Shown here in pieces: positions 1,280 through 23,048 of a DNA stretch of 23,695 bases. Both the position numbers and the translations under genes were made by a program. This DNA comes from Wickerhamiella versatilis (taxonomy: Eukaryota). The stretch lies in the NCBI GenBank assembly GCA_030867685.1, contig JAQOWU010000004.1, positions 62,001 through 85,695 of the forward strand, written 5' to 3'. Position 1 is the stretch's first letter. Every line of letters starts with the position of its first letter. The notes beneath the pieces were generated by a model, which saw only the letters and a program-made list of their open reading frames with translations, was not told the DNA's origin and did no database searches.

Positions 1280-1292
1280 TCCAACCAGTCTC
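1280..1292 (-). repeat. Short interstitial fragment of the 41-bp unit (GAGACTGGTTGGA)
   Basis: 13/13 match on the minus strand. Confidence 0.55.
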
Positions 1293-1366
1293 GTGCAGCG
1301 TTGAAAAGAGCCCCGCACTTTCGAAATGGGTCACAAGAGGTTATGAATGTTCTTTATATTGTTCCT

Positions 1367-1379
1367 GGCTATCTTGCAT
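1367..1379 (-). repeat. Short interstitial fragment of the 41-bp unit (ATGCAAGATAGCC)
   Basis: 13/13 match on the minus strand. Confidence 0.55.
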
Positions 1380-1563
1380 GCTCCTGATTAAGTTAGTACG
1401 CAGCTGGGGTAACCCTTACCATGTCGAAAGAGAGCGACTAACGTCGATGCCTCTAGAAACGAAAATTGCTCCTGCTATGCTAATAGGCAAAAAGCTCACC
1501 TTGTCGTTTTCGGTATTCTTCCAGGATTTTTCCACAATCTTGGCTAGGAATGAACCACAAATC

Positions 1564-1601
1564 ATCTTGCATTGTCCAACCAGTCTCGGGTAGTGAAGTG
1601 G
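1564..1601 (-). repeat. Interstitial near-full copy of the 41-bp unit
   Basis: ATCTTGCATTGTCCAACCAGTCTCGGGTAGTGAAGTGG, 37/38 match to the reverse complement of the terminal array. Confidence 0.95.
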
Positions 1602-1714
1602 ACCATCCCCCATCTCTATAGAAATAGTATTTTAGGATCCCTGAAACACAGAATTCCTTATCAAGAGAGTTGCTTACCAGGGTGACCCTAAACTACATAA
1701 GTACTATGCACAGG

Positions 1715-1738
1715 TGGACAATGCAAGATAGCCCACTT
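1715..1738 (+). repeat. Interstitial partial copy of the 41-bp unit
   Basis: TGGACAATGCAAGATAGCCCACTT, 24/24 match. Confidence 0.92.
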
Positions 1739-3428
1739 AAGATTAATGTAAAATTATACCGCAAATGGGTTTCAATTATACTGAATAACAAATGGCAGTA
1801 ATGATAAAGCCAGTATAAGCCAATTCGGGGCCCACGATAGGCTGGCAGCCTCAGTTACAATTACAGAATTATTGCATACAATAATCAATCCTGTCACTAC
1901 ATGAGCTTTTGGCTATCAAGGATTACAAATAGATCATCTGCACTCTCAGCAGCTGCATTCATTGACCAGAGAATATGTTCGTCTAGAGTCTCTGCTTGGT
2001 AAACATGTGTTTGTTGAACCGTGCACGATAACCTGATCTATCAGTCCCTATTCAGTGCATATATAAAGGGTTTAGACTCCGCTTGCGTTAGTATCTTTGG
2101 CTTTTCCATGCATATTAGGATCTATTGAGTTGACTGGTTGGATATTTGCATTCGTTACCAGCGTTTGTGTCTGTGGTAAATTCGTAGTCAAGCGTGTTCG
2201 CTCTCCTGGCCTTATATTCCTGATAGTTCTTGGTCTTTTTGCTTTACTTGATGCAAGATAGTCTAGCATCGATTTACTACTGAGCTACAGATAGAGTTGT
2301 GAACCTGAGCAGTTGACTTGAAATTTGCAATTTGTTTCCATAATATATAGACTGGCACTCAACTTAATTGGTCTAAGCACGTGGCGATTGCCACAATTAT
2401 CTCTCTTGCATGATAAATTGAGATGTATATTATCAAGTCAATCCATGGCAACAAGATGAGTAAATATTATTCCCTAGTTAGTCAAGCAATTTAGAGGCTA
2501 GCGGTGATATATATTGCATTGTCAAGTCAATGTATGTTATAAATTTATAATTCGTAATTTGGCAACGTAACGCTATGATTCTTATCCAAAACAAGGAGAA
2601 TTAATTACACATTCAGAGAAGAATGATAGGTATGCCCAGTCTTCCATAATAAACCAATAAAATAAGATATTTGAATTCCTCCCACGTATCTAATCGTATA
2701 ACTTACTATAGGCACAAGATCACACCTTCGTTCCTCGAGAAATTCAGAGACACAGACATCGCGAACAGGTAGCAACTCAAAAGAAGAAAAAAGGGCAGCT
2801 ACCAAATATAAGAAACTGCTCAAGATATTGCCGTTCAAAAACGAGACCGCTGATAACTTAGAAACCAGTTCTGTTCTTACCAATGGTCATTAATATTTGT
2901 GTTTCTTCATATATCCTTAATTAGACAAGAATTGAGAGACAAATAGTACACCACACATTTTTGCAACCAATCTCAGAAAAACATGCGCCAATGAAACCCT
3001 AATATATTCAGACAAACTCGGAACCACTTGCCTTCTACAATTTTGATGTCCTTGCGAAATGTAGGATTACGCCTGGCTTTGAGAGAGGGAAGAGTCACAG
3101 TATCCGATTACAGTACATATTGTTGGACCCTATTAAAGAAATCAGGTTTCCAGTAGAAGCCGCCCTTTTTGCTGGTCTCCAACCTATACCCTAAGCCTAA
3201 AAGATAAGGCGTCAGTCTGATTCGCTAGAAGTACTCTAAAAAGCAAATGAATCTAAAGAGCTTTAATAACTAGGAGGCATTCTAGAACCCTATTTTTTGT
3301 TATCTTTACCTCCCTGCATTCGCCGATATGATAATTAGTCAACGAGGTTGACGATCAATTAATAAGAGGCGAAATATAATCGCCCAGTCTTCTTGATATC
3401 TTCCTGCTCATACAGGAAGGGAAGAAAA

Positions 3429-5033
3429 ATGAGCGACGTCAAAGAAAATCGCGTACAATATCAGGTGGAACCGGTGAAAGGTGCCGATGCCAAACCTACA
3501 AAGAGTCTAGAAGAAGGTCATATGAGCAGTGTATGGTCGAACCAAAGTAATTCACAGCGTGCCATCAAGGAGCATGAGGATGGGGATCTTGCGCTAAAGT
3601 ATCTACACAACAATGTTCATGACGGCGAAAAGGTTCCACCTGATGTGCAGCGACGAATCATGTTTAAGACAGACGTGTATCTGTTCCTTTTCATGGGATG
3701 GTGCTACTGCCTCCAGCTTGCCGATAAAACATTGGTTAGTGGGTGCAGCGTTCTTGGCATTATAGAGGATCTTAATATGGTGGATAATCAATACGACTGG
3801 GTTACTAGTGGTTTTTATCTGGGGTATTTGGTGGGAGTACTGCCCATGGTGCTTCTGATGCAGAAATTCGGGGTGGCTAGATTTTCCTGTGTAGCCTACA
3901 TAGCATGGGCCGTGGTGCTCACAGTATCGGCTGCTAGTCAAAGTTATGCCGGTTATATGGTCACACGGGTCCTGATGGGCATCCTCGAATCCGTGATAAC
4001 CCCTGCGTTCACAACCATCACTGCGCAGTGGTTCCCCAGACGCGAGCATTTCAGCCGCACCTTGTTTTGGTTCGGCTGGGATGGCCTCGGAACCATACTG
4101 GTGAATGCCATTGCGTACGGATGTTACGTCCACCGAGAAAGCATGGACCTTGCACCATGGCGCATCCTGATCATTATATTTGGCCTGATGACCCTGGTTA
4201 CTAGCGTGGTATTCTACTTCCACATACCGGACACGCCGGCCCAGGCTTGGTTTCTGACTGAGGACGAGCGGGAGTGGCAGGTCCAGATGATTCGTGAAGC
4301 AAACTCATCTTCGGGTTACGGTACCCCGGTCATCAAGACGTATCAGATCACAGAAGCAGTTCTGGACCCCGCCACATGGCTGGCTGCCATGTACATGATC
4401 CTTTCTGATGTGCCAAATGGCGCGTCTACTGGGTTCTCCAATATCTTGCTTGAGGGTTTTGGATTTGACACTACCAAGAAGTCGCTACTTATGGGTCTTC
4501 CGTGCGGCGCCCTCTCCCTGGTGGGATGTCTGGTCACTGGCATCTGCTCCTTGTTTTTCTTTAAGAACCACCGGATGGTATATGCCATTTTCCACGCATC
4601 CGCCGATGTGCTGTGCTTCTGCCTCATGGCCTGGGGGCCGAACCGGGGATCTCAATTGTTCGGATACCTCGCCACGAACTGGACGAACCAGATCGGAATG
4701 CCGGCCCTCATGTCGAATATCGCCTCAAATACCGGCGGATTCACGAAAATGCTCGTTGTAGACGCTATCTTCAACGCAAGTTTTTCTGCGGGTAACATTC
4801 TGGGACCTCAATCCGTGCAAGACAAGGAGAGGCCTACATACAGAACAGCTAAGGCAACAATGGCAGGCTGCGATGCGGGCGGTTTGGTTATGATGGTGGC
4901 GCTGATGTTCCTGAACGTTTGGAGGAACTGGAGGCGGAGCAAGAGCGGTAAGAGGCTCCCTCCGGAGATCAAGGATCCCGAATTTGCCGATCTCACTGAT
5001 TTGGAGAACCCAGAATTCCGCTATGCTCTGTAG
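3429..5033 (+). CDS. MFS transporter, anion:cation symporter family (allantoate/ureidosuccinate permease DAL5-like)
   Basis: Intact ORF from ATG 3429 (MSDVK) with about 12 hydrophobic segments. Motifs: KTDVYLF..YCLQLADK, FYLGYLV, RVLMGILESVITPAF..TAQWF, FHIPDTPAQAWFLTEDER and the C-terminal FADLTDLENPEFRYAL typical of DAL5-family permeases. Confidence 0.9.
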   Translation: MSDVKENRVQYQVEPVKGADAKPTKSLEEGHMSSVWSNQSNSQRAIKEHEDGDLALKYLHNNVHDGEKVPPDVQRRIMFKTDVYLFLFMGWCYCLQLADKTLVSGCSVLGIIEDLNMVDNQYDWVTSGFYLGYLVGVLPMVLLMQKFGVARFSCVAYIAWAVVLTVSAASQSYAGYMVTRVLMGILESVITPAFTTITAQWFPRREHFSRTLFWFGWDGLGTILVNAIAYGCYVHRESMDLAPWRILIIIFGLMTLVTSVVFYFHIPDTPAQAWFLTEDEREWQVQMIREANSSSGYGTPVIKTYQITEAVLDPATWLAAMYMILSDVPNGASTGFSNILLEGFGFDTTKKSLLMGLPCGALSLVGCLVTGICSLFFFKNHRMVYAIFHASADVLCFCLMAWGPNRGSQLFGYLATNWTNQIGMPALMSNIASNTGGFTKMLVVDAIFNASFSAGNILGPQSVQDKERPTYRTAKATMAGCDAGGLVMMVALMFLNVWRNWRRSKSGKRLPPEIKDPEFADLTDLENPEFRYAL

Positions 5034-5376
5034 GAACATCGGGCGGCATCAACTACCATGATAATACTGGCTATAGGGATAGCGGCTTATTTATAATTTG
5101 ATTTTATAATAATTGCAATTAAATATTTAAATTTTTTTTATCTCACATGGATAGTTATATTCCTGGGGGCTTTTTCTTACTGCACTATTTCTATCCTGTT
5201 ACACTGCAAGATAGGTGGATATATTTATATATGGTCAAGCCAGCTAATTAATTACTTGATACTATTATAATACAACCAAAAAGAATGGCTTCGTGAGGCA
5301 TTGAGTAGTCTAACACGTAACCATAAATCTCGATTACACGAACCGAGCCAGTGCTTTGTTAATGTAAAGCTGAAAT

Positions 5377-5406
5377 CCACTTCACTACCTGGAAAAGATA
5401 GCCCAC
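5377..5406 (+). repeat. Internally deleted copy of the 41-bp unit
   Basis: CCACTTCACTACCTG (15/15) + GAA + AAGATAGCCCAC (12/12). Preceded by GCTGAAAT, as at 19959. Confidence 0.85.
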
Positions 5407-5516
5407 AGTTAAGACTCACATCCTCTTCGTGAATGGTTTTATCAAGCATGCCGCAATTGGCTCTTTTGATGTTCCCTATATCATGAACAATGTTTCTACA
5501 AAATTCCCTATATACC

Positions 5517-5555
5517 GGGCTCTCTTGCATTGTTCAACAAGTTTCAAGCAGTGAA
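5517..5555 (-). repeat. Decayed interstitial copy of the 41-bp unit
   Basis: GGGCTCTCTTGCATTGTTCAACAAGTTTCAAGCAGTGAA vs GGGCTATCTTGCATTGTCCAACCAGTCTCAGGTAGTGAA, 33/39 ungapped. Confidence 0.85.
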
Positions 5556-5677
5556 ACGAAATACAATATATGCATGAATGAACCTAATAGCGTAAATATA
5601 CATACAATGAGAAAGCATCTAGCAACAAATTCCATCATCTATCATTACCGATACTATGGTCGCCTAATGTCTGTACA

Positions 5678-6796
5678 CTAAATTGGTCCTAATGGCTCTT
5701 CGCTGCAGGCTAAGTTGCATTGGCGATAAATACGTGTTTCTCCAGGATAGAAGCTACCAGTAACACAGTGTAGCACTCCATGATTATTGAATAGTGCAAG
5801 GTCTCCCTCGTCCCAATCCACTGGGTAGACAAGTTCAGGCGCGATACCTGGACGCTGTAAGCGGTACACTATCTCACGTACCTCTGAAAGGTCGTCCATG
5901 ACAGTGCCATTAGCACAGTGTAGTTTCTCGACAGCCAATGGATGAATTTGCAGGGCCAGCTTACCTGTCACTGGATTGCGCCAGCACATAGGAAGAATCT
6001 TAATTTTGGAATCATCAATGGGTGGTAACTGTTCATAGCCCAGTTCGAGCCCCTGGGATATCATTCCAAGTCCATTCGAGCGAGACTTCGCATTTGAGAT
6101 CCAGATGTATGGGTGTGGGGCATACTGTACTCTTGTGGTACGAGCAAACTTCTTATCTTTCTCTGACAACAAGTCATACATGGTATATGAACTCACAAAT
6201 GCGGTTGACCCGCGTGGTACTCTGAGCGACTCGCTAGTGCCATCGTCGTAAAGTAGATTCTGGTGCCCAGCCTTGGGAACCCGAACTGCCATCAGTGAGG
6301 TTACACGGGGCGGGTTGAAGTCATAAAATGCAGCATCTATGTGCCACCGGAAGAAGCGCGTATACTCCCGGTCATTTTCCGGGGTGATATATGTTCTGTG
6401 GAATGTCCGATGGTGGGGATGCTTCAACGTAAAATTCTCGAGTCCCTCGAACTCAGCAACAGAGCCGTTGCCAATTACTTGAACTTGTGGCTGATGCGGT
6501 ATAGTTTTGGCATTGTGCTGAAGGATGGATTTTGCTGCATGGATTGTCTTTCCATGGCCATATTCCTGGACGCCAGGATCGAATAATCTCGTAAGCTCAT
6601 ATTGAGCTTTGGGTGAAAGGTGGTGCTGGCCCTTGAAGAGAATAAGTTGATTTTCATAAAGTGCATTTTTTATTACCTCAAAATCTGATGAAGTGATGTT
6701 CTCCAGGTCTGCACCCTGGAGTTCTGCACCGAAACTCACTTTGGAATGATTAGGAGTGGGGAGTGGATGCACAGTTATGCAGGATGTTGCGGCCAT
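5678..6796 (-). CDS. xanA: Fe(II)/alpha-ketoglutarate-dependent xanthine dioxygenase (TauD/TfdA family)
   Basis: Likely ATG 6796 (MAATS). Metal-binding HxD in RWHIDAA and distal His in FNNHGVLHCVTG. LKHPHHRTFH, YAPHPYIW and YRQCNLA resemble fungal XanA. Divergent from a purine permease. Confidence 0.85.
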   Translation of the reverse strand: MAATSCITVHPLPTPNHSKVSFGAELQGADLENITSSDFEVIKNALYENQLILFKGQHHLSPKAQYELTRLFDPGVQEYGHGKTIHAAKSILQHNAKTIPHQPQVQVIGNGSVAEFEGLENFTLKHPHHRTFHRTYITPENDREYTRFFRWHIDAAFYDFNPPRVTSLMAVRVPKAGHQNLLYDDGTSESLRVPRGSTAFVSSYTMYDLLSEKDKKFARTTRVQYAPHPYIWISNAKSRSNGLGMISQGLELGYEQLPPIDDSKIKILPMCWRNPVTGKLALQIHPLAVEKLHCANGTVMDDLSEVREIVYRLQRPGIAPELVYPVDWDEGDLALFNNHGVLHCVTGSFYPGETRIYRQCNLACSEEPLGPI

Positions 6797-7106
6797 GATT
6801 GACACTAGTAGCCTCTTTGCACAATAGTCAAGCAACCCAAGTTAGCTAGTCAGATACAAATGTGAATCAAAAAGCAAATATAAAAGGCTGCTGACATTGC
6901 TAGGCTTAGTCCATGGTGGGTTGGGAAGCTTGTCTCATTTAGGAGATGGGGTAAAGCAACCTTAAAAGAACTCAGCCATAATTTTTATGTAGTATACCCC
7001 TCTTAATTGTTGGTTTATTTTGCCCTAGCATGAGCCTGGTTGGATACAACTACGCTGCAGGGTGAAGGACCTGGGTCATGTGCCACTATCATTAGGGCTA
7101 GGTCTA

Positions 7107-7150
7107 CGCGGAGAGTCTTATCTTCTCCACGATATCTCTCACCGCGGAGA
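7107..7150. promoter_or_regulatory. Candidate regulatory cluster in the xanA/permease divergent promoter (CGG-containing repeats around a GATA site)
   Basis: CGCGGAGA at 7107 and 7143, an inverted TCTCCACG at 7124, and CTTATC (GATAAG on the minus strand) at 7117. Consistent with Zn2Cys6 plus GATA-factor control of purine catabolism, but not proven. Confidence 0.3.
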
Positions 7151-7342
7151 ATAAGAGGTAATAGAGTGGTGGCAATTGTTGATACAGACTAGCGAAAAAA
7201 TCCAATTAATCCCATCTTATACAGTGTAAATGCACAGCGGTAACAGTAAAGTGGTGAAGGACGATTCATTCAACCTGAAGTTAACGCCCCTTAGTAACCT
7301 CCGGTTATTTCACCCTGCTTAATCTACCTCTGGCAAGATAGA

Positions 7343-9184
7343 ATGTTGTTCAACAATAATTGTTCCAATTCCAACTCTATTTGGCATAACTTTAGGGTAT
7401 CTGCTAAGAACAAAAAGCACAAAGGTCGTGCAAACCCCCTACCCCCACCAGCTCAGCATGCACCCACAAATACGTTGCGACGGATGTGGAGGGAGATATA
7501 CCATATGTTTTGCACTTATGATGGTATTATCGGTGATGAAGTGGACTACTTCTCTTTATTTAGGCCCACTATCCCCTTCACTAAATGGAAATCACAGGCC
7601 CCTCACTTTTTTTCTTTACACTCGCGTCCCCCCCTACTATTGACAATAATTCTCGGATTGCAACACGCAATGGCAATGATGGGAGGTCTTATATCTCCAC
7701 CTCTGATGTTTGCCTCAGCTGCTAACTTAGAGGATCCAGATAAAGAGTATCTCGTATCTTGCGCATTGCTGGGTGCGGGTATTCTTACCCTGATTCAACT
7801 TCTGAGGGTCCACATTCCCTACACGAAGCTCTATATTGGGACGGGTATGATCTCTGTTTTGGGAGAGTCATTTGGTGTAGTTCCAATTTTTCAAGATATG
7901 GTTCCTCGAATGTATGCAAGTGGCTTTTGCCCCACAGATGGTGATGGTAATAAGCTGCCATGTAGAGAAGCTTATGGCGCCTTTTTAGCAACAGGAGCGC
8001 TCTGTGCGCTGCTTCAGGTGGTATTATCGCTTTTACCACCTCGTATACTTGAACGTGTTTTTCCACCGATAGTTGTAGGGGCAGTGGTTCTGCTAACCGG
8101 TGCAGCACTCGCAGCGTCAGGTGTACAGGATTGGGCAGGTGGCTCAAGCTGCATGTCTGGCGGACTCTGCAATTCCAGTGTACCTAATCATACACACCCA
8201 TGGGGATCTGGGCAATGGATTGGACTGGGATTCGTGGTTATAGTTGCTATAATACTATGTGACAAGTTTGGTTCCCCGATCATGAAGTCCTGCTCTATTT
8301 TTATTGGCCTTTTGGTGGGATGCATCGTCGCAGCTGCAACAGGCTACTTCCAGCACGAATCCATTGATGTGGCTCCTAACGGCCAATTTGTGTGGGTGAG
8401 GACTTTCCCATTGAAGCTTTATGGTCCTGCAGTTCTCCCATTGTTAGCTATATACCTCGTCCAGATTATGGAGTCTATTGGCGATATAACGGCCTCAGCC
8501 GATGTTTCACGGCTCGAAGTTGAGGGTGAGGAATTTGAATCGCGGGTTCAAGGCGGCCTAATGGCCTCAGGCTTGGCCTCTATTGTAGGGGGATTAATGA
8601 CCTTGACACCAATGGCGACATTTGCTCAAAACAATGCAGTAATATCGATGACTCAAGCCCCTTCACGATGTGTGGGCTTCGCCTGTTGTTTTTTTCTCAT
8701 CATCATGGGCGTTGTGGGCAAGTTTAGTGCAGCCATTGTTGCCATTCCACACGCAATTATAGGAGGAATGACTACTTTTCTTTTCACAGCTGTGGGAGTG
8801 AGTGGGCTGGCCATTGTGTCTAAATCCACTTTTAACCGTCGTGACAGAATGGTCCTCGGAATAGGCCTGACCTTTGGCTTTGCTTCGCTAATGGTTCCGT
8901 CTTGGTTCTCAGGAGTATTCACATATAAGGGAGATAATGTTGGCAAGCAGGGTTTCATAAATGCTATTGTAACTGTTGTCGAAACTCCATATTGCATATG
9001 TGGTATAGCAGGAGCATTGGCAAATGTTTTCTTGCCGCCCCAGGACGATATGCCAGAGTTACTCGAAGGGAAGGATCCTCATCCTGATAAGATCCCCAGT
9101 AAGTGGGAGACGGTGAAGTCCAGGATGCAAAAAGGATTTGATATTGAGCCTACTGGCAAGACGGTTACGGTTCTTCCTGATTAG
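7343..9184 (+). CDS. NCS2/NAT family uric acid-xanthine permease (UapA/UapC-like)
   Basis: LGLQHAMAM (TMS1 QH), FPPIVVG, MESIGDITAS and the NAT signature region FAQNNAVISMTQ. The start is uncertain; a small 5' intron is possible. Confidence 0.92.
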   Translation: MLFNNNCSNSNSIWHNFRVSAKNKKHKGRANPLPPPAQHAPTNTLRRMWREIYHMFCTYDGIIGDEVDYFSLFRPTIPFTKWKSQAPHFFSLHSRPPLLLTIILGLQHAMAMMGGLISPPLMFASAANLEDPDKEYLVSCALLGAGILTLIQLLRVHIPYTKLYIGTGMISVLGESFGVVPIFQDMVPRMYASGFCPTDGDGNKLPCREAYGAFLATGALCALLQVVLSLLPPRILERVFPPIVVGAVVLLTGAALAASGVQDWAGGSSCMSGGLCNSSVPNHTHPWGSGQWIGLGFVVIVAIILCDKFGSPIMKSCSIFIGLLVGCIVAAATGYFQHESIDVAPNGQFVWVRTFPLKLYGPAVLPLLAIYLVQIMESIGDITASADVSRLEVEGEEFESRVQGGLMASGLASIVGGLMTLTPMATFAQNNAVISMTQAPSRCVGFACCFFLIIMGVVGKFSAAIVAIPHAIIGGMTTFLFTAVGVSGLAIVSKSTFNRRDRMVLGIGLTFGFASLMVPSWFSGVFTYKGDNVGKQGFINAIVTVVETPYCICGIAGALANVFLPPQDDMPELLEGKDPHPDKIPSKWETVKSRMQKGFDIEPTGKTVTVLPD

Positions 9185-9538
9185 ACTCGGTATACCTTTT
9201 TTATTAGGTACTACCATAGGTTGAAAAGGTATAGGTTTCAGGATTATATTTACCAAGACATCATGCATCTTCTGGAAGCTAGTTGGCGTGGCTTATCCAT
9301 TGGTATCTCATAATCGGGCAGTAAAGACGAACGGACTTCATAATAAGACCCTACTGTTTATGGCGTCATTCCTGTGGGTTTGGGTTGTATCGTTGTTAAT
9401 TATTCCATAATTCCACGGAGCTAGAGGTATTATCTAAATCAGTACAAAAAAGGAGCAAGACTATTTTCTTTTGTTTGCAGGCATAAGCTGGAGCTTTAAG
9501 TTTGCTACAATCAGAGAAAAGCATTATCCCACAAAAGA

Positions 9539-12253: not shown

Positions 12254-12816
12254 ACTGGACAAGCTAAGGCTCTATAGTGCTGGCATCGCCATTCGAATAT
12301 ATATAAGCGAGTGACAAGCTACGTCGATCATTGTCGGGTCAAGGGTATAATTAAATTAATATTGCAATTGCCGATACGGTCAGTGATCTGCATCGGTATT
12401 CCGACAATCTGGTGTAATCGAGAACAAGAGAAATCTCATTGACCCAACTGTGTACAGCTTTTCCCCCCAATCCTTTGCAGCCTACGTTCTTCTTCACACA
12501 AAATCCCCTGTCTTTTCCCTAAGAAAGTGACGATCTCGATCTACATTGACTTACTAATTGTCAAATAGTGGCCCAGCCCTCTGTGGGATGGAAGCCACAC
12601 ATAAGATATGATATAATTAACAACCGGTGGCCGCATATCAAGTTTTATACGTATCACACAAGAACTATTCTACGGTTGCATCTCCATAATCGGATATGCA
12701 GGATGCGTTACGGGTAGGATGCTGTATTGCTTATCAGCTCCTAGAGTTAAACCTAACCCATGTTGATCATAATGAGTACAGAGACTTTCGGCACATGCAC
12801 TAGGATTCAAAGCCAA

Positions 12817-12855
12817 ACTGGTTGGGCAACGCATGATAGCACACTTCACTACCTG
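12817..12855 (+). repeat. Decayed interstitial copy of the 41-bp unit
   Basis: ACTGGTTGGGCAACGCATGATAGCACACTTCACTACCTG, 35/39 ungapped. Confidence 0.9.
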
Positions 12856-12949
12856 CCACTGATTAGGTACATGATAGTCCTTAAATAATAACAATGATCC
12901 TGCATTCCTGTTGACCAGACCTTGGGTTTCTAATAAAGTTGGAAGGAAT

Positions 12950-13540
12950 TTAGCTATATGTATACATACCGGGGTTATGTGCTAAAAACCTCTGTTGATG
13001 ATAAACAAAAGCTGTTGAAAAATCTCTCCCAAAATCTGTGATACTTCGTGCTGGCTTTCCCACCACATCTTTGAAGTCATCGGTAACTAGGTTACCCCAG
13101 TTCGTGCTGTACGCCATAAAGTAACCACAAAGCAAGTTCACACTCCATTCGTCTATTCCAAAGCTTACCATCGTCTTCCAACTATCATCTATGGTTGCAG
13201 GTTAATTAGCAACCTTCTTGTGGATAGAATTGCCAATTGTCTCAGTAATCTGATTCATAGATAACGACTCCAGCCCTATTATAGTGTAAATCTTCCCTTC
13301 ATGCCCTTCTGGGTTTGCCAATATACACGCGGCAAATTCGGCTATGTCGCGAGAGTCAATGAGTCCCATTCGACTATCAGCTAATGGACAATTGAGTGCA
13401 CCCGTCTCAACTATTAACTGAGCAGATCCTAATAAGCTTTGCATGAAAAAATGTGGCTTGATTATCGTATATGGAATTTCTGAAGTGATCAGTTCGGCAT
13501 TTGACAAGCCATGCAGTCTGCTATTTCCGTAATCAAACAT
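12950..13540 (-). pseudogene. NmrA-like / atypical SDR NAD(P)-binding protein remnant, bacterial-like
   Basis: ORFs 13202..13540 and 12950..13171 are in the same frame, separated by one TAA at 13202-13204 (KKVAN*PATIDDSWKTM). Motifs: YTIIKPHFFMQSL, IDSRDIAEFAACILANPEGHEGKIYTIIG and VTDDFKDVVGKPARSITDFGRD. The N-terminal Rossmann glycine motif is absent. Confidence 0.8.
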
Positions 13541-14177
13541 AAATATAATCTCTCGTTCTTCCCGTAGCTGTTAACTCGTAAACCTGCTGTAATCACAGTA
13601 CATGCTTGTTGTGCTTGTGCTTGTTTATACGAATCGGTAGATTCGTTAGTTCCAATCTATTTTCCAGGCCATAGCTACAGTCTCATGGATCGATAAGTGA
13701 TTGCCTTTTGTTATCTCACTTATTTTCTGAAGGACACAAAAAAAAGAATACTTATGTATCTGTGCAGCATGTTACTAAGTAATTACTCACAAAGTACACC
13801 TGCGATTATGCTAACGGATTACGTCGCGTGACTTTACAATTAATACTATTCTTGGTATTTCTGGATGGATCGTCGAATAACTAGTAGAAATTGACATCGG
13901 AATCGTTTGCTTCTGTATTCTATACGTATAGCGGAGCGCGGCGGCACTGGAGCCAGTGGTGGAGGCAGGAGGTTTTGACATTTCTGCCTGCGTCCTGACC
14001 GAACATGGGTTAGCACGAAATACATGTGAAGTATTTCACTAAATGTCCAGGGACAAATAGAAGTATTGAACTATTAACGTGAATATTATTGATTAAGCGG
14101 CAATTAAGGACCTTCCCATGGTCATGGGTGACTTAGGCTCTTATTTGAAGCGATATTACGTTGACCAGAGAAGAGCT

Positions 14178-15290
14178 CTAAACGTCTTCACCAACCCTCT
14201 TATTCAAATATTTATCAATTGCTCCTTGATCGTTGGGATTATGAAGATGAGTCGGGAATTTGGTTTCCACTATAAAGTCTGCCAAAAAAACAAGGTCCTC
14301 TCCAAGAGGAATATATTTCGATGACTTGAAAGCTGAAAGTGCTTTTATCTGTATCTCGGCATTAGTTTCATTTCCAGCCATGATTAACTTGCCATAGTGC
14401 GGCAGAGTATCCGCTTTAGGCCCCCCGATCACATCGAGCGGATTATTTGGAACGTCCGAAGAGTAGCTTCCCCACACATCTCCATAGTTGACAAAACTGA
14501 TAAAGTTGGTCGCTTTTCCTGTAGCGCTGGAATTTTGCGGGAATCCGGCGCCCTCAAAAGCCACACCACCAAATCCAAACTGCCGGCCAACATACTCAGC
14601 CTCACCTGCCCCCGTCGAGTGCCCAGTGACGTAAATATCTGACACAGACCTTTTCTCGCCTTTTGCTACTACGTAAACAAGACGGCAGAATGCAGCAGCA
14701 TTCTTTTGTCCTTCATTTACCGTGCCACTTACGCTTCCTTCATCTTGAACAAGGCTTCCTAGGTCGGTAGGAAGGTTCTCTATTTGAAAGCCAGAGAATG
14801 CGATGATAATTTTGTCAGTTTCACTTACAAAAACGCGTGCATTCATACCGGTAGCAGTGTCGTACGCGCTGAGCTGCTTGTTAGAACCGGGCACATTATA
14901 TGGTTTCAAGCTCGAATTAGAGGGAACCGACGGCACGGAGTAAAAAGTGGACTTCTCGACAGCTAGTGATGCCTGCATCAATTGGTCAATGGTTGGTGCA
15001 TTAGCGTCGTTATTTTGTTCACTGGCGTCAACTGCTGGTACTGGGGCATTATTGGCATTGAGAAGATCGTAGAAAGCAGGAGCAGCGGCTTGAGAGCCCC
15101 CTTTAGGCGCCCATATCTCGCTTAATACAATATTTGCGGGTGAATACTCGTAGAGAGCCTGTAATACTTCCTGTAGCATATACACACCACGCAGTTGGCT
15201 GGCAATACTCCCGTCACCATCACGCCTTTCAAGTACAGGGGCAGAGTTCACAGCCAATAGCAGGCTGAAAAACACTGATATGCTGACCAT
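14178..15290 (-). CDS. Secreted lipase-like alpha/beta hydrolase (lipase class 3 / Mbeg1-like)
   Basis: Signal peptide from ATG 15290 (MVSISVFFSLLLAVNSAP) and a dibasic ERR site. Motifs: KIIIAFSG, nucleophile elbow IYVTGHSTG, GVAFEGAG, FVNYGDVW and a C-terminal His (THLH). Confidence 0.8.
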   Translation of the reverse strand: MVSISVFFSLLLAVNSAPVLERRDGDGSIASQLRGVYMLQEVLQALYEYSPANIVLSEIWAPKGGSQAAAPAFYDLLNANNAPVPAVDASEQNNDANAPTIDQLMQASLAVEKSTFYSVPSVPSNSSLKPYNVPGSNKQLSAYDTATGMNARVFVSETDKIIIAFSGFQIENLPTDLGSLVQDEGSVSGTVNEGQKNAAAFCRLVYVVAKGEKRSVSDIYVTGHSTGAGEAEYVGRQFGFGGVAFEGAGFPQNSSATGKATNFISFVNYGDVWGSYSSDVPNNPLDVIGGPKADTLPHYGKLIMAGNETNAEIQIKALSAFKSSKYIPLGEDLVFLADFIVETKFPTHLHNPNDQGAIDKYLNKRVGEDV

Positions 15291-16082
15291 TGTCGATAAA
15301 CAAGAAATTTCGATCACATGCTGTGCGTTCACTTTATATGCATGGATATGACCTACCCCCCGACAATACGCATCTCATCCCTTAACCAGAGATTACGCAT
15401 CGTGCTAAAACCAAGTTTAGAAGCATGAAGTCTTAATACATCAGAGGCGGCTAGCTAGTAGATATATTTCAGGCATTACGTTGCTCCTTTGACCCAATGG
15501 ATCTTAATATCTTTTATCTTTGGGCGAAGGAAAACGTGGTTTTACCACGCTATGATCCAAAGTAAGGGTTAAAGAGTGAGTTCTGGCTAATTGCTTCTCG
15601 GTATTCAATGGTTTTTATCTTGACTTTCAAATTCTCTTTATGTGAGCCCCCCCGGTCATAGCCCTAAGCCTAAAATATATACACGCATAATTTTTCAAAC
15701 GTGATGTTGTTTTAAAACCTCTTATAAGTATGCTTACACTAAAAAAAGTAATAACCGTTTAAAATTCCACGCACTCCTATCCTAAAAAGTCTGCTCAGCA
15801 AATGCTAGCTCTCAAATCTTATCGTAGTAATGACGATCTACACATGGTACGTACATATCGTGCTACAAGAGATATATCAGAATGATTAGTTATGGGCTCA
15901 ATTATGTCTAAAAAACTGTGAAAACATAGCGCACCTGTGTACACACTCACTATCTGTTTGAGATACCTAGCATCGTCAACCCAGAGGAATATCCAGGCCC
16001 CCCTGCAACTATATTTATGATATGAGATATGGGTTAGTTACAATAATTCAATAAATTAGCTTTGTTTATTTAATGTGTAGAT

Positions 16083-17170
16083 TTGGATGTCACCTTTTCA
16101 ACATTTTTGATTACAGCCTCAGCGATCATTAATAGGAAGTACCCAATGAGTAATATTAGACTTATCCAGGATGCGCTGTTTTCAATAGCCTATCAATACA
16201 ATGAAATAGAAGACGGCCAAAACGACTCGGACTCCAAATGGAAGATAAATAAGGCATTCTTTAGTTGCAGACAATCGAGAATCCTGAAATATTTGATCCC
16301 TCAAATAAACAGCTATTGCCAAGTTGGTAACGCAAAATATGGCTATTACAATGGCGAATGCGAACATAACTTTCGGCCCCGAATCCTCCCTTTTAAGGGC
16401 AAAAGTCGTTACAAAAACAACATAACAACATGCTATTATATTTGCTACGTCGAAGAGTATTTCGACTCTCAATATTGACAAGAGACGACGCCCTCATATT
16501 GCAATCGAAAAGGACGTGTAACCCCCTTATAAATAGCACACTCATCCTAGGATAAAACGTGATGTATATGTCATGTATGCGTAATGCCAAAAACATTAGC
16601 ATTGCCCAACCACGGATGCGAGTTTCAGTCATAGACTCCATCATTTGCCTGCTGTTTTCCTGTGATATTCCTAAATTTTTCGCTGTTGAGGTCTCGAATG
16701 GACAAAGCGTAGTTTGTGGTGGTGCAAGCCATAACAATGGGTCGCTTGGTTACGGGTCTGGAACTATTAATATACTGCAGTCTGATATATTCGAGTATTC
16801 GAATGGATCATTAATCGATATTTCCCATGATGGTCCAGCTAACTATGTTGTAGCAGGGCCATATGTGAGAAGTTACTATAAGAATGATAGTGGTGGATTG
16901 TACTATGTGGATCGTGGGAGCGAGCTTATACTCAGAGAATTGTTTAAGTTTTTATATTTTTCAGAGTGGAATGTGAAAAGAAATAGGCAGCTTACACACA
17001 ATGGAAACTCTGTGTTCTACGTGGATAGTGCGTCATGTGAAGTGCTGACAGATCCACCAGAAGAGTTTGGGAAAACAGGCCAAACCGTTAGTTTTTCTGT
17101 GAAGCCTATTGATCCTCTGTACCACCAAATATTGGTAGCAAGCCATTCACGACGGCCTAAGACTCCATGA
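16083..17170 (+). other. Two consecutive unassigned ORFs (131 and 203 codons), possibly one decayed orphan gene
   Basis: Same-strand ORFs in different frames in AT-rich DNA. No motif recognised. Confidence 0.25.
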
Positions 17171-17201
17171 ATCTCTTCAAACAATGAGAAGGCATACATA
17201 T

Positions 17202-17217
17202 GACATTGCAAGATAGC
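17202..17217 (+). repeat. Short interstitial fragment of the 41-bp unit
   Basis: GACATTGCAAGATAGC, 15/16 match. Confidence 0.55.
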
Positions 17218-17307
17218 TGATAGTTAATAGCTGACTGAATAGTAAATTGAAGCTCCATGTTAAATATTGTCACCAAATTGGATATTCAGCTGTAAAGCAA
17301 TCATGGC

Positions 17308-17535
17308 TTATAGTTCAGTGTGCAAGCGGGCGTCCAGGCGCTTATGGTGTCCAGGTAACAGTACCCACAGTATGAACCCCATTACACAAGCCAGAGAGGA
17401 AATACCAATACAGAAATACATTGTCCCCCGCCATGCCCTTAATTCTGGATCTGGATGGTTTTGCTGTTGAGCCAGCTGATGAGTGACAGTGCCGGCAATC
17501 CCCAAAAAAATGGAAATACCATAATGGGATAATAG
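17308..17535 (-). pseudogene. C-terminal remnant of an ATR1-like (DHA2) MFS transporter
   Basis: In-frame HYGISIFLGIAGTVTHQL...LRAWRGTMYFCIGISSLACVMGFILW resembles the last two TM segments of ATR1-family proteins (NYSISxGLGxAGTV...GYRGAxYxGIG). No upstream part of the gene is visible. Confidence 0.6.
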
Positions 17536-17715
17536 GTTTCGCTCTAGTACTTTCGACTATATTGTGCGCATATCACTTTTTTCATCACCTTCGCCAAGAT
17601 AATACAGACGTGGAAATTGGGTTTGAAAATCAAGATATCGAGGACAGATTATCTCATATTACTCACGAGAATCCGACTTAAGCCATATTGAATTCATATT
17701 TAGAAATAAGCTGTT

Positions 17716-17750
17716 CCTGAGACTGTGTGGACAATGCAAGATAGCCCACT
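17716..17750 (+). repeat. Interstitial partial copy of the 41-bp unit
   Basis: CCTGAGACTGTGTGGACAATGCAAGATAGCCCACT, 33/35 match. Confidence 0.93.
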
Positions 17751-18717
17751 CTTCTGACCTTATGATGATGAGAACTAGTAACGCTTAGGTCCAGGAAGAT
17801 GATTCAACATCTCGCTATGACAGTTATTTATAAGAATAGCATTATCGATGGCGTCGTAAATTCAGCGTACATGCGGATGCTATTGCCGTCATATTGCGGG
17901 GTTTGAAGATTTCGTTGGCAATTCGAGATTGACGCGTACAAAAAGCTCTGTGTTCAATTTTTTTTTCACATAATATCAATAAATCTATGCTTCGCTAGCG
18001 TTCCTTGGTCTTTCAGATTTCGACAGATGTCCACCAGCGATTACACAGGCACGAGACTACTTTAATCATTCTTTCGAAACTGATTTGCTGAAGACTTAGA
18101 ACATAGTTGACAAGAATCATAGTAAGAGGATTCGCATTTGTAGGTTGCCTTAGATAATGGTAGTGGACCGGAAGTGAGCCGAAGATCTTCGGTTATACCT
18201 GCTACCTTAGGGATTAGATAATATTTTATATTCCTAAAGCTATATGAGAATTATTGATTGTATCCATCTCAAACTCGTCGTCCTGCTCATCTTGAGGTAG
18301 CTGCTTAGATGTTGCATAAGTTTTATCTTGAGAAGTTGGTTGCAACAGGTATGCTACCGATATGAAAAAGAAAATATATACGGTATTCTATCTTCTATGT
18401 CTCTGCACTATTATTATTTTGATCATGGTTGAATTTTCTGGTGATAGAAACAGCCCCGTTGAGATATGTACTAGTGGAACGACATGCTCTATTATCTTAG
18501 TACAAAATACTATATATCCTAATTTGGCAATATAAGAATGAAGCATTCAACTAGTATACCTAGGTGCGTGTTGTCATAGTTATATGGATCTTTCCCGTAT
18601 ATAATGATGGTATTAAGGGAAATGAATGAATGTTGATAGGGGCTTGATCCATGGCTTATTTAGTGGATTTGTGGTCGAAGCTCTTAATGAGCTACGTACA
18701 CTTGTGTACAAAATGTT

Positions 18718-19701
18718 TTAGATTACAGGAACATAGTGAGCCAACCAGGAATCCATTACAGATGTTGCTGCATATGTCACATCTCCAAGTCGTAGGAGCA
18801 TTTCTACATGTCCTTCAAATCCCAAACCCTCAAATACGTGAAAGGATACATCAGTTCCTGCAGCGGTCAGAGTCGCAGCTAACTCGATGGCCTGGCGTAT
18901 ATCGCCTTGTCTCTGTACATGAAGGAGTAAAAAAGCACGCGCATTGGGTACATGTGCATGGTAAGTAGGTGACATGGCACGGAGTCTTGTTGGCACAGTG
19001 CCTAGCGCCTGAATCATATTGTCTGCTACAGGCCCTGGGCTATCTAAAATCTCTGCCGGTGCATTGTAATTGGATCCATCCAGAGATATTACTCCTACTA
19101 TTTTGTTGATGGGCAATCCTGACCGTTCCAGATAGCTCGTGTCAGTGCCAAGCAAAGTGGCAACATGCGCCCCTGAGCTGTGTCCCATCAGCACAATTCG
19201 TTCAGGATCAAGGTGAAACTCAGTCGCATTCTGTACTAGAAATGCCACAGATTCTGCTACCTCCTGCACCTGCTCCTCGACCGAAACTAAAGGAAATAGC
19301 GTGTAGTTGATGGTGGCAAATGCATAGCCCTCAGCAGTCAAATGGCCCACTTTGGCTGAGCCAGTGCTGTCCAAGTATGTACCAGATTTCCAACTACCAC
19401 CATGGATAAATACGATAATAGGGGCTGAGGATGATGCTGTGCTCTCCCATAAGCGAAGGCGTTGACTGTCGCGCTTTCCATATTTCAGATCCTTACCACC
19501 AGTAGGCTGGTCTAAATTCATCTGGGACATGAGATCCTGCACCCTATCTATCGAAATGTCATCCTCCGCAATTCCCTGATACAACTTCAACTCTCCCGTA
19601 ATCTCTTTTCTTTGAGGTCGTCTCGAATCGGTACTTATGGTGCTATCATTAGACACCGGCTGTGTGGATATTGAACTAGTTATTGTAGGAGAATCGCACA
19701 T
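18718..19701 (-). CDS. Alpha/beta hydrolase, carboxylesterase/arylformamidase-like (HSL-like family)
   Basis: IIVFIHGGSW oxyanion motif, GYAFATINY and nucleophile IVLMGHSSGAH, plus a C-terminal GH. Start at ATG 19701 (MCDS) or ATG 19806. Confidence 0.85.
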   Translation of the reverse strand: MCDSPTITSSISTQPVSNDSTISTDSRRPQRKEITGELKLYQGIAEDDISIDRVQDLMSQMNLDQPTGGKDLKYGKRDSQRLRLWESTASSSAPIIVFIHGGSWKSGTYLDSTGSAKVGHLTAEGYAFATINYTLFPLVSVEEQVQEVAESVAFLVQNATEFHLDPERIVLMGHSSGAHVATLLGTDTSYLERSGLPINKIVGVISLDGSNYNAPAEILDSPGPVADNMIQALGTVPTRLRAMSPTYHAHVPNARAFLLLHVQRQGDIRQAIELAATLTAAGTDVSFHVFEGLGFEGHVEMLLRLGDVTYAATSVMDSWLAHYVPVI

Positions 19702-19966
19702 GCTGAAAAATGCTACCGCACCACTTGAAAAGTAATTTGCATTATACTCCGAAGGATGTAGACCTTTTAGTAATACTGATTGCTGCCTCCTAACCACTAA
19801 CGTCATCAATGCATAACACTCCTAGTAAAAGGAAGGGGAGTTTGTGTTAATTAAGAGATATTAATAATTAAGAAATATTTGTAGAGATTATCAGCTGGTT
19901 TCGATATTTTGCTATGATCTTCTATAGCTGAGCCATTGATGCAGAGGATAGGACCTGTGCTGAAAT

Positions 19967-20012
19967 CCACTTCACTACCTGAGACTGGTTGGACAATGCA
20001 AGATACCCCACT
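19967..20012 (+). repeat. One full unit plus 5 nt of the 41-bp repeat (CCACT...CCACT)
   Basis: 45/46 match (G>C at 20006), terminally redundant CCACT, preceded by GCTGAAAT. Confidence 0.96.
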
Positions 20013-20395
20013 AAGCAGGAAGTCAGTCATCGGTCTGTTTGTTGATTAGTGCCAGTGACATCATTATCTAGAGGAAAATTCTAAGGCGTAAAGAGAGATG
20101 CTCAGAGCCTGACATTAGCCATTCAGCCCCAAAATTCTAACTATGAGCCATCCGAGAACAGAGATCTGAAATATATTCTTTCCTCCAGCACCAACTTCCT
20201 CCCAAATCACCCATCCAGGTAAATTACACCGGCCACGTTATCATCCCTCTAATTATACTAGTTTAACACCGACATAACGGTGATGAAAGTTTACCCTTTG
20301 AGTTTAGTATTTGATAAATGGCTATATGTAATAATTTATAATAAGGATCAGAGAATCAGTAATAAAATATCTCAAACATGCCAAGCAAGCTTCAT

Positions 20396-22147
20396 TCAGC
20401 CTGCTCCATATTTAGCTACTGCCTTATCATGAATCTCTTTCCCTCTTAGCCTCATGTAAATAGGCAGAGGTATAAGCATGAATGATATAAATGTGAGAAT
20501 TGTGCAGCCCCATCCTACCGGATAACCATCAATAGCAGTGTTGTTGTACATGTAACGAGCAAACAATGGGAATGCTGCAGCAAGTAAAGCCCTAGCAACA
20601 GAATTTGAAGCGAATGCTGAAGCTATTAAGTGCGAAGGATACAGATTAGCCAGGAATGACAGGTAAGATTGAAAAGCAAGCCAGAGAGAGCCACCAAAAA
20701 TGGCCAGACCAACCACCGAAGGGAACCAATGGACACCCGGATGTGAAGACCAGCCATATATTAAGAGTCCCAATGGGTACATTACTGCAGAAACGATTGC
20801 AGTATTACCGAAAATAGCGTACGGATCTACCGCTTTTGATTCACGCGGATTAACGCTTCCATCTCTTTTCAGTGGTGATATCAGGAAATACTGCAAATAG
20901 GGCGTATAAAGGAAACCCATTATGACAATCCCTGCTATAAGCCCAAGGTACATGAGACCCTGCTGTACTGCATTGAAATTATATACGCTGCCATATGATA
21001 TAGGGACGGCTTCGAAAAACAGGTACATGATAGCATACATCAGCCCTAGATGTAGATCAATAAGTGCAAGGACTGGTTCACGTATAGTTATCTCTATTGG
21101 TTTCCAAAATATTTCCTTGAGAACTTGTTGCGTGCTCTGGTTCCTGAGCTGTATATCCCCTGGGGCGACAATATTAGGATTCTTCAATCGACGACGGAGA
21201 CTCCTTGCTTTTTTCATCAGGATAGCCTGGTGACTTGTTTCAGGGAAAAGGAACAGTATGGCCACAAGAACTGCTCCAGCTTGGATCAATAGATACCAGA
21301 AAGCCCAGCGCCATGAGTTGTGTTGGACCAGCGCACCACCAATCAATGGCCCAATACAAGGTCCAAGAACAGCCCCAGCAGACCAAGCAATAAGCGCATA
21401 TGTTACAAATGGGAAACCAAATATGTCATCGTAAGTAGCACCGCCAGTTGCCAACGGTGGGCTGGCCATACACCCACCCAAGAGGCGAAGCACAGCGAAA
21501 GGGGCTATGTGATTGCATAGGGCAGTTGGAATTTGTAAAGCACAAAAGACAAGCTGGCAGAACAGGTAAATCCATAATCTCCCACCAAAGAGGGGATTGT
21601 CACTCATTGGGCTGAACCACAATGACGCAATTCCATACCCCCACACATAAAGAGATAACCCAAGCGTTACCTTGACTTCACTAGTTTGGAAGTGCCCAAT
21701 AAGCTGCTGTTCTGCCGGAGTGAACAACGCTGAACCCATGTATAAGGAAGCTGTAATCAACGCCATAACAAGAGCCACAATAGCCTTTTTTGGAAACGGC
21801 CAGTTACGGGGATTTGCAACATCATCTGGTCCATCCCAATCGACAATAATATGGTTCACGGCATCGGGATCATCGTGGCCCTTTTTCCGTCTGTAGTCTG
21901 CTGCAGAAGCGTACCTATCACCAACTATGGCCGCATCAATTTCGTTTTGGGTGGATTTTGCCTGGGAATTCCAGGATGCACTAGAGGCTGTATCTTGGTC
22001 AAAATTTTCCTCCAAATATCTTTTGGGTACTGTATAGCTCTCTAGCTCAAACAACGGTTTGCAAAAGCGCCGTCCTGATATTTCATAAATAAAAATTCCC
22101 ACACTACTGTCACGAAGTAGAGAGCTTATGCTATAAGCGATGCTCAT
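20396..22147 (-). CDS. MFS multidrug:H+ antiporter, DHA1 family (FLR1/MDR1/Caf5-like)
   Basis: IIVDWDGPDDVANPRNWP, YMGSALFTP, LGLSLYVWGYG, SPPLATGGA, LGPCIGPLIGG, FPETS, YLFFEAVPI, ASAFASN and GYPVGWG. Confidence 0.92.
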   Translation of the reverse strand: MSIAYSISSLLRDSSVGIFIYEISGRRFCKPLFELESYTVPKRYLEENFDQDTASSASWNSQAKSTQNEIDAAIVGDRYASAADYRRKKGHDDPDAVNHIIVDWDGPDDVANPRNWPFPKKAIVALVMALITASLYMGSALFTPAEQQLIGHFQTSEVKVTLGLSLYVWGYGIASLWFSPMSDNPLFGGRLWIYLFCQLVFCALQIPTALCNHIAPFAVLRLLGGCMASPPLATGGATYDDIFGFPFVTYALIAWSAGAVLGPCIGPLIGGALVQHNSWRWAFWYLLIQAGAVLVAILFLFPETSHQAILMKKARSLRRRLKNPNIVAPGDIQLRNQSTQQVLKEIFWKPIEITIREPVLALIDLHLGLMYAIMYLFFEAVPISYGSVYNFNAVQQGLMYLGLIAGIVIMGFLYTPYLQYFLISPLKRDGSVNPRESKAVDPYAIFGNTAIVSAVMYPLGLLIYGWSSHPGVHWFPSVVGLAIFGGSLWLAFQSYLSFLANLYPSHLIASAFASNSVARALLAAAFPLFARYMYNNTAIDGYPVGWGCTILTFISFMLIPLPIYMRLRGKEIHDKAVAKYGAG

Positions 22148-22689
22148 TTAGAAAACATTTAGGATATGACACAATCTTTTAACGCTAATCCTGATGACCT
22201 TACAACCGTACAGATAGACAGACTAACATTAGATAATATTACCAATATTGCAGAAATATATTACAAGCATGGATAGTCGCTCCTCATTGTTCTGACGTGT
22301 GATTTACTATTTTAGCTAGTACCATGAGCAGATTCGTCATCCGGGATACCAATAATATTGTCGAAGTTTTTTTTCCATTTTAGAACTTTGTCTGGTCCAC
22401 ACTTGTCGAGGAGGAAATAACCGTTAGGCGAGGCAAACCTAGTCTCACGCAAGGTACGCGGACTAAGCGTAACCTTTGTCAGTCCTGGTGGCGTAGGGGT
22501 AACCCTGGCTAAGTGATTTAGGCAACTGGGAGACGGTACACTTCACTTTCCATAGCAGTTGCTGGGTTTGGATTTGTCTCGAGCATCTTCCACGTGCCGG
22601 TTATCCTCAAGACCGAAGACACGTCAAGCAATGCTCAGAAAGTGAAGGATGGGTTAGCAATATCCAAAGTGAACGTGGAGGTGTCGTCA

Positions 22690-22727
22690 TCTCTGCATGA
22701 TTGGTAATATTATCAATCATGCAGAGA
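22690..22727. repeat. 38-bp near-perfect palindrome
   Basis: TCTCTGCATGATTGGTAAT|ATTATCAATCATGCAGAGA, 19-bp arms, no spacer, one G-T mismatch. Confidence 0.85.
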
Positions 22728-22946
22728 GAGGCTGAGTGACGTTGAGACTGCTGTGCCGCTCACGGTCATATACACGTACTTTTCGCATTTGGTAGCATAA
22801 CTTTTTTTGATATTTGAGATCATTTACTTGTGTACCAAAATAACTGTTGGACTTGGGACCAACAAGTCCAAGATACCTGCCCTATGTAAGGTACAATTGC
22901 CTCTAAGAACGTGCAGTGGCAATCACAACAGGGTAGGGGTGTATTC

Positions 22947-22967
22947 GACAATGCAAGATAGCCCACT
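22947..22967 (+). repeat. Interstitial partial copy of the 41-bp unit
   Basis: GACAATGCAAGATAGCCCACT, 21/21 match. Confidence 0.9.
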
Positions 22968-23048
22968 CCGGGTAGGGTTGGAAAGAGGGCTTATATTAAT
23001 TGTGATTTAACGTGAATATTGCATTTCATATTCATTATTATATAAAAG

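Follow-up and report, generated by a model that had tools for sequence, protein, structure and literature searches.

Interstitial copies of a 41-nt telomeric unit in a putative yeast subtelomere share end phases that suggest the limits of a telomerase RNA template

Interstitial copies and the terminal array

The window analysed here, a 23,695-base stretch of contig JAQOWU010000004.1, ends in an array of a 41-nt unit, and short copies of the same unit are scattered through its non-array part, the first 23,227 bases (Table 1). The open reading frames (ORFs) of the window are long and intron-free, as in yeast subtelomeres, and their families include two MFS transporters, a TauD-family dioxygenase, a purine permease, a secreted-type aspartyl protease and an alpha/beta hydrolase. 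For the purine permease, the best named relatives come from Starmerella bombicola (64%) and Wickerhamiella sorbophila (54%). The window appears to be a subtelomere, or chromosome end, a contig end alone being no proof of the latter; the budding yeast that it comes from probably belongs to the Wickerhamiella/Starmerella group, judging from two of its proteins, the permease and the dioxygenase.

The array consists of identical units that run head-to-tail into the contig end, with the plus strand's 3′ end outward, as expected of an array made by telomerase. It starts in phase 15 (TGGTTGG...) of the unit and cuts a short-chain dehydrogenase ORF after 60 codons. Full-unit matches in the window comprise ten perfect units and the stretch 19972–20012 (one mismatch), and none of 100 shuffles contained any such match. 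Four fragments of the unit were found in no paper searched; the supplementary yeast-motif tables of PMC7857110, which lay outside that search, may hold it.

The last 5.2 kb of the window is matched in part by 21 listed runs from 13 studies. Contigs of four sequencing runs (X1, X6, X14 and X21) were aligned to 3228–23227; tallies given below are of the rows listed, and 248 further rows exist. X6, X14 and X21 are relatives that differ by 2–6%, and X1 is possibly the window's own source sample, hence not independent. One X14 contig (record 9) carries 22647–23227 and then 1839 more letters, into sequence matching 13617–16082. Since this contig continues past 23227, gene order at the end of the window differs between strains, and the array junction at 23228 looks like an intragenic chromosome break healed by telomere addition. 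Because the array truncates the ORF and the X14 contig runs past that point, the plus strand would be the strand made by telomerase, and a fixed end of the copies would be its 3′ end.

A blastn-short search of the non-array part with three units, together with register analysis, gave eight solid copies (E<0.01) and three weak ones (13–16 nt, E 0.03–0.13). The latter are two 13-mers and a 16-mer, each individually near chance level. All eleven copies lie outside ORFs of at least 150 amino acids. The solid copies occupy internal sites, measure at most 48 nt and meet unrelated DNA at sharp junctions; seven of the eight are no longer than one unit plus 5 nt and have unique right flanks, and flank homology is limited to a shared 8-mer described below. 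Six are oriented like the terminal array and two are opposite. The 5377 and 5517 copies face each other with their 3′ ends, 110 bp apart, and the 1564 and 1715 copies with their 5′ starts, 113 bp apart. We note that the first of these pairs was probably not made at once, because the 5517 copy is far more diverged (6/39 vs 0/27 mismatches). The copy at 5377–5406 is made up of CCACT...CCTG (15 nt), three other bases and AAGATAGCCCAC (12 nt), and is best read as one template pass with an internal deletion.

Table 1. Coordinates of the array, its interstitial copies and other features of the window
Feature	Position	Strand	Details
Weak copy	1280–1292	-	perfect 13-mer, phases 10 to 22, E 0.03
Weak copy	1367–1379	-	perfect 13-mer, phases 25 to 37, E 0.03
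Solid copy	1564–1601	-	38 nt, 1 mismatch, CCACT start, early end at phase 33; T precedes
Solid copy	1715–1738	+	24 nt, perfect, phases 19–41 plus T, ends CCCACTT
Non-telomeric 8-mer GCTGAAAT	5369–5376	+	directly before the 5377 copy
Solid copy	5377–5391 plus 5395–5406	+	15+12 nt, 0 mismatches, CCACT start, ends CCCAC
Solid copy	5517–5555	-	39 nt, 6 mismatches (33/39 match), phases 41 to 38
TauD-family (xanthine-dioxygenase-like) gene	5678–6796	-	
Solid copy	12817–12864	+	48 nt, 7 mismatches, array register, phase 13 across the boundary to phase 19
NmrA-like family fragment	13202–13570	-	Pfam, profile 138–239 of 298, E 5.8e-6, just under Pfam cut-off
Weak copy	17202–17217	+	15/16 match, 1 mismatch, phases 21–36
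Solid copy	17716–17750	+	35 nt, 2 mismatches, phases 7–41, ends CCCACT
Non-telomeric 8-mer GCTGAAAT	19959–19966	+	directly before the 19967 copy, identical to 5369–5376
Solid copy	19967–20012	+	46 nt, one unit plus 5 nt, 1 mismatch at 20006, CCACT...CCCACT
Solid copy	22947–22967	+	21 nt, perfect, phases 21–41, ends CCCACT
Short-chain dehydrogenase ORF, 5′ part	23049–23227	+	60 codons, adh_short E 1.5e-4, below Pfam cut-off
Terminal telomeric array	23228–23695	+	TRF: single array, period 41, 11.4 copies, 100% matches, runs off the contig end

Non-random ends and a shared flank

A preliminary description of this DNA had placed ten of eleven copies within CCACT–unit–CCACT(T), and the same ten indeed fit one 47-nt window. 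The five ends at CCCAC(T)(T) that it reported recur at 5406, 17750, 20012, 22967 and 1738, the three CCACT starts at 5377, 19967 and, on the minus strand, 1601, and the copy at 19967–20012 is again one unit plus 5 nt, apart from its single mismatch. It was also right that only the 12817 copy crosses the boundary; this copy does not end at 12855, as had been stated, and extends 9 nt more to 12864.

End phases are not uniform, and their clustering is significant within the window. In simulations with a post hoc choice of the best phase or window, at least five of eight solid right ends fall in any 3-phase window with P=0.0034 (5/11 with the weak copies included, P=0.022), and at least three of eight solid left ends fall at one phase with P=0.030 (3/11 with the weak copies, P=0.084). 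The best 47-nt permutation window takes in at least 10/11 copies with P=0.0037 (7/8 solid, P=0.0065). The observed clustering is real and non-random. The ends are also sharp, the match being perfect up to CCCACT with no residual similarity beyond. Because the 3′ end of the plus strand points toward the array, the fixed CCCACT end is on the side expected for the stop of a telomerase product.

A further regularity, which goes beyond the preliminary description, lies in the left flanks. The 5377 and 19967 copies share a flank, the 8-mer GCTGAAAT that directly precedes each of them; it occurs three times in the 23,227 non-array bases, both strands counted, the third occurrence being at 4048 on the minus strand. 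AAGCTG is common to the flanks of the 5377 copy and of the 17716 copy (there as AAGCTG+TT), which is without the first part of the unit. In all three copies with a CCACT start, the preceding base is T, where the array has C. Beyond these shared bases, a comparison for flank paralogy found no similarity among the copies or elsewhere in the window. The same foreign 8-mer before the same phase twice argues against a relic of an array and fits a template RNA, or its gene, that continues past the repeat.

Other flank signals are slighter. A weak similarity, GAGCCAKTG, further upstream of both 5377 and 19967 was estimated to be compatible with chance, and TAAG or AAG after the boundary in three copies (1715, 19967 and 5377) is too short to weigh. 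The 22947 copy is flanked by an 8-nt direct repeat, GGGTAGGG, at −16 and +3 (22931–22977; 10/11 over a longer stretch). As a target-site duplication this is not significant, having P=0.02 taken alone and being the only flanking direct repeat among the nine copies tested.

The contigs of other runs bear on both ends of the copies. X1 repeats eight listed stretches of the window with 0 differences, which confirms the assembly; together with the presence of the 19967 copy in the relatives, this agreement means that the copies are not artefacts. Low depth is not evidence of absence over 3895–12565, where X6 and X14 have almost none, or over 16568–17234, where X14 has none, and no contig forms a joint across either part. 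Behind the 19967 copy, the listed rows have loose ends only at 20005, 20010 and 20012, formed by 17+10 contigs in X1, 6+7 in X6, 5+3+4 in X14 and 8+5 in X21; the consensus of the loose letters there is array-like in X14 and in none of the other three runs. Before the copy, the listed rows have 24, 7, 5 and 10 contigs ending loosely at 19967, and rows at 19968–19981 have 3–8 each. Three contigs show a copy ending in (C)CCACT, a spacer of 10, 17 or 32 letters, and then a new copy at another phase. The loose-end tally supports clustered 3′ ends and does not settle the 5′ ends.

Several side observations come from the same contigs. Joints within the unit of 19967–20012, with undefined letters between, step back by 45, which gives a 45-nt unit with four extra bases at the boundary, or by 35 and 33, which gives units short of six or eight bases before CCACT; from these joints, found in X1, X6, X14 and X21, it follows that units of other lengths exist elsewhere in the genomes concerned. 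Contigs of X21 and of a minor strain of X1 fit the window up to 18558 and go on with 12 other letters and a telomeric copy from near phase 9, which may be a different chromosome end or junction. Near the weak copy at 17202–17217, listed X6 and X21 contigs lose their fit at 17232 and 17220, respectively.

A predicted telomerase template and competing explanations

The fixed stop of the copies most likely marks the end of a telomerase RNA template. From the copies, we predict a template of 46–47 nt that is complementary to CCACT and one full unit, optionally with one more base; 3′ of it the RNA probably goes on with AUUUCAGC. On the clustered right ends, the proposed 5′ template boundary is well supported; the placement of the template 3′ end at CCACT gains support from the shared flank, and single-round insertion is plausible. 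We give an even chance to the view, in our judgement the one that fits best, that the copies are one-pass telomerase products joined to other DNA, like the TERC-type interstitial telomeric sequences (TERC-ITS) of vertebrates. Telomerase as the agent, the single pass and the joining step are what we infer from the copies, phases and shared flank described above.

The proposed mechanism would have three steps: (I) a DNA 3′ end, from a break or an uncapped end, would pair with little or no homology anywhere along the accessible telomerase RNA, (II) extension would run to a fixed 5′ template boundary, the DNA then reading ...CCCAC(T)(T), and (III) the extended end would be joined to other DNA without a second extension. 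The outcome would be products whose left end varies, whose right end is fixed and whose length does not exceed one unit plus the terminal redundancy. Products with a CCACT start would have begun at or beyond the template 3′ end, and three products would also include a copy of the RNA just 3′ of the template, which reads (AA)GCTGAAAT in the DNA sense and AUUUCAGC(UU) in the RNA. Both orientations, as well as the pairs 5377/5517 and 1564/1715, would be accounted for if either end of a break can be extended.

A number of observations weigh against this mechanism. Two solid copies (1564 and 5517) do not stop at the boundary, and the 12817–12864 copy passes it in array register. The loose-end tally is confounded, in that contigs continuing in array register, too, are clipped at 19967 and 20012; the consensus before 19967 ends in the array-like AGATAGC, and this pile is partly array-phase. 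The unit (A12 C11 G9 T9) is not G-rich, so that its composition gives no independent check of the strand. The 19967 copy is old and predates the 2–6% divergence, because contigs of the relatives bridge its junctions, the left one in X21 record 19 (18701–19998) and the right one in X6 record 27 (19976–20501). Three times, a copy and the flank on its right are retained in relatives that differ on the left: an X14 joint from 19918 to 19969 lacks 50 nt that span the left junction and include GCTGAAAT but keeps the copy, an X21 joint from 22666 to 22947 with 21 letters between gives a longer copy, and an X21 joint from 18558 to 12818 gives a 12817-type copy with another left flank. These cases fit recombination or deletion at existing tracts as well. 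Finally, no empty orthologous site was seen among the listed joints of the four runs, none of which removes exactly one copy; the 22947 site is spanned in X14 record 9 with 20 unplaced gap letters. The telomerase reading given in the preliminary description is partly supported: the fixed 3′ stop and the clustered ends speak for it, and single-round insertion is at most plausible.

The explanation that competes best, possible but on balance unlikely, is that the copies are relics of multi-unit terminal tracts that were healed at variable phases, had distal DNA joined to them and then collapsed by slippage to about one unit or less. End joining or break-induced replication would have attached the distal DNA where the tract naturally ends 3′, at the template boundary, or there would have been recombination within the tract. 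The 5′ boundary would then stand, single-round insertion would be wrong and CCACT would not be the template 3′ end. The 12817–12864 copy speaks for such relics: it lies in array register, exceeds one unit (plus 5 nt) as no other copy does, and is likely to be a relic of a real array. So do the orientation shared by six of the eight solid copies with the terminal array and the three cases in which relatives keep the copy and right flank next to other left junctions, as expected if tracts recombine. A tract of 41+r nt could, moreover, shed exactly 41 nt by way of a terminal repeat of r nt, which would explain lengths of at most 46 nt. However, relics cannot place the same non-telomeric GCTGAAAT before CCACT twice, nor T for C in three of three cases. 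None of the eight solid copies contains a tract of two units or more, two are in the opposite orientation, and start phases are not uniform (P=0.03). A tract of more than one unit, or a degenerate one, in array register, as in relics of the X-Y′ type, is found in one of the eight, again 12817–12864.

Improbable in our view is descent of the three copies flanked by (AA)GCTGAAAT from one ancestral junction through small duplications. Left junctions are prone to rearrangement in the relatives, so that flanks could have been trimmed independently, and the chance-compatible GAGCCAKTG would be a second similarity upstream of 5377 and 19967. Against this, the flanks otherwise share nothing on either side, trimming would have had to halt at the same 8 nt on two independent occasions, and the right flanks all differ.

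Very improbable is the idea that the copies are selected binding sites of a telomere-repeat-binding protein, acting as insulators or promoter elements, with ends set by the protein footprint. Their location outside the longer ORFs would suit this, as would the retention of the 19967 copy in relatives and the inclusion of part of ...GCAAGAT(AGC) in nine or ten of the eleven. This shared 3′ part is, however, the expected by-product of products running to one boundary, and different parts of the unit are kept: 5377–5391 has only its first 15 nt and 22947 only its last 21. The ends are sharp and do not decay, and two copies are heavily mutated. Least probable of all, an array and copies that are telomerase-free (maintained by recombination or rolling-circle replication) or assembly artefacts would agree with a unit that is not G-rich and with the existence, in the available text of PMC13234504, of yeasts without telomerase that bear unusual end arrays, but end phases that are fixed, and a flank from outside the repeat, call for a template with ends, and artefacts are contradicted by the zero differences in X1 (possibly the source sample) and by the 19967 copy in relatives.

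Outside the array, no perfect 46-nt match occurs in the window, which also gives no Rfam match at E up to 1. A non-coding locus with a perfect unit plus redundancy is likewise absent from the window, where 19967–20012 is the sole full-length copy. This copy was considered as the template locus and rejected, in that its mismatch at 20006 does not occur in the array and it sits in a 589-bp spacer between ORFs. Pattern scans gave 0 matches to the 22-nt centre of the unit in metagenome, genome and viral contig collections, and 0 matches to the GCTGAAAT+CCACT junction in metagenome contigs. In the literature searched, no telomerase RNA is described for the Wickerhamiella/Starmerella group; the text searched of Starmerella and Wickerhamiella genome papers mentions telomeric repeats without giving their sequence.

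A bolder extension of the one-pass mechanism, which we regard as doubtful, would make telomerase a routine enzyme of break repair and fragment capture in this lineage. Mosaics at chromosome ends would grow by one segment at a time and show a footprint of telomerase at almost every seam, copying would sometimes start beyond the canonical template, and the captured segments would include genes of seemingly horizontal origin, such as the xanthine-dioxygenase-like gene. This TauD-family gene adjoins the 5377 and 5517 copies. It is a candidate for horizontal acquisition because its best named relatives are from Dothideomycetes (72–74% identity), whereas those of its permease neighbour are from Starmerella and Wickerhamiella. 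If the extension were correct, the footprints would give 54–57 nt of telomerase RNA sequence.

Among small ORFs around the copies, Pfam found the NmrA-like fragment as its sole match and, besides the terminal dehydrogenase, no truncated genes at left junctions. The fragment, which has short minus-strand ORFs as neighbours, is likely a pseudogene. Listed X14 and X21 contigs lose their fit at 13617, close to it, and again at 16082, a structural difference with no telomeric copy there; X6 record 24 fits 13855–16082 and 16083–16842 with 1440 further letters between. Summed depth reaches 673 in X14 over 12566–13232, beside the 12817 copy (about 118 nearby), and about 260 in X1 over 17235–18568, beside the 17716 copy (about 110–130 nearby). 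Depth is not a copy number, and these peaks hint at repeated elements.

Comparison with known telomeric repeats

Yeast telomerase RNAs evolve fast and are hard to find. If the one-pass mechanism holds, genomic scars would give the length of the template (46–47 nt), both of its ends and about 8–10 nt of adjacent RNA, and with them an exact query for finding the gene. Break repair templated by telomerase RNA, documented to date in vertebrates, would extend to budding yeast, each repair event would be readable base by base thanks to the 41-nt unit, and the copies would suggest in what way the variable ends of the chromosomes arise in these yeasts.

One of the nearest likenesses is to vertebrates. 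There, short interstitial telomeric sequences (s-ITS; PMC2246262) and TERC-ITS are internal telomeric repeats ascribed to telomerase at double-strand breaks. In the available text of PMC8537989, TERC-ITS consist of telomeric repeats that were inserted at breaks along with retrotranscribed fragments of telomerase RNA, and for one locus the explanation is that RNA directly adjoining the template was copied. The shared flank described here would be the counterpart of such RNA-derived sequence from outside the template, and the head-to-head arrangement known from vertebrate interstitial sequences recurs in the 5377/5517 pair. The copies may work like TERC-ITS, a likeness that we do not extend to membership in that class. 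As far as these accounts go, three differences stand out: (I) the vertebrate unit is 6 nt long, so that phase says little, whereas each copy of a 41-nt unit records where copying started and stopped, (II) one-step insertion of TERC-ITS was shown by empty orthologous loci, whereas none was found here, and (III) the vertebrate telomerase RNA is known, whereas here it is predicted from repeat copies alone. The density of copies is also far higher, with eight solid ones in 23 kb of one subtelomere.

In Saccharomyces cerevisiae, interstitial telomeric tracts lie at X-Y′ junctions, where they serve as recombination sites; they are irregular TG1-3 runs without a readable phase. The copies resemble these tracts in being subtelomeric, mostly in the orientation of the terminal tract, and beside variable, partly repeated segments, and the junction at 23228 resembles de novo telomere addition in the same species, an intragenic break being healed by the array. 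In contrast to the X-Y′ tracts, the right flanks here are unrelated single genes, and a shared non-telomeric flank is not known as a feature of those tracts.

Kluyveromyces lactis has a 25-nt unit and a 30-nt template with 5-nt terminal repeats. The template predicted here would be built alike, with one unit plus about 5–6 nt of redundancy, CCACT(T) at both ends. Like the long regular repeats of K. lactis and of Pichia norvegensis, the present unit is perfectly regular; the putative 43-nt motif of P. norvegensis is named among the longest in the available text of PMC7857110. In Hansenula polymorpha, according to the available text of PMC3851723, telomerase copies one nucleotide past the predicted 5′ boundary, both in vitro and in vivo. 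The ragged stops seen here, at CCCAC, CCCACT or CCCACTT, are similar, and are read from genomic scars only. Unlike K. lactis and P. norvegensis, the present lineage appears to be that of the Wickerhamiella/Starmerella group, and a template of 46–47 nt would be among the longest.

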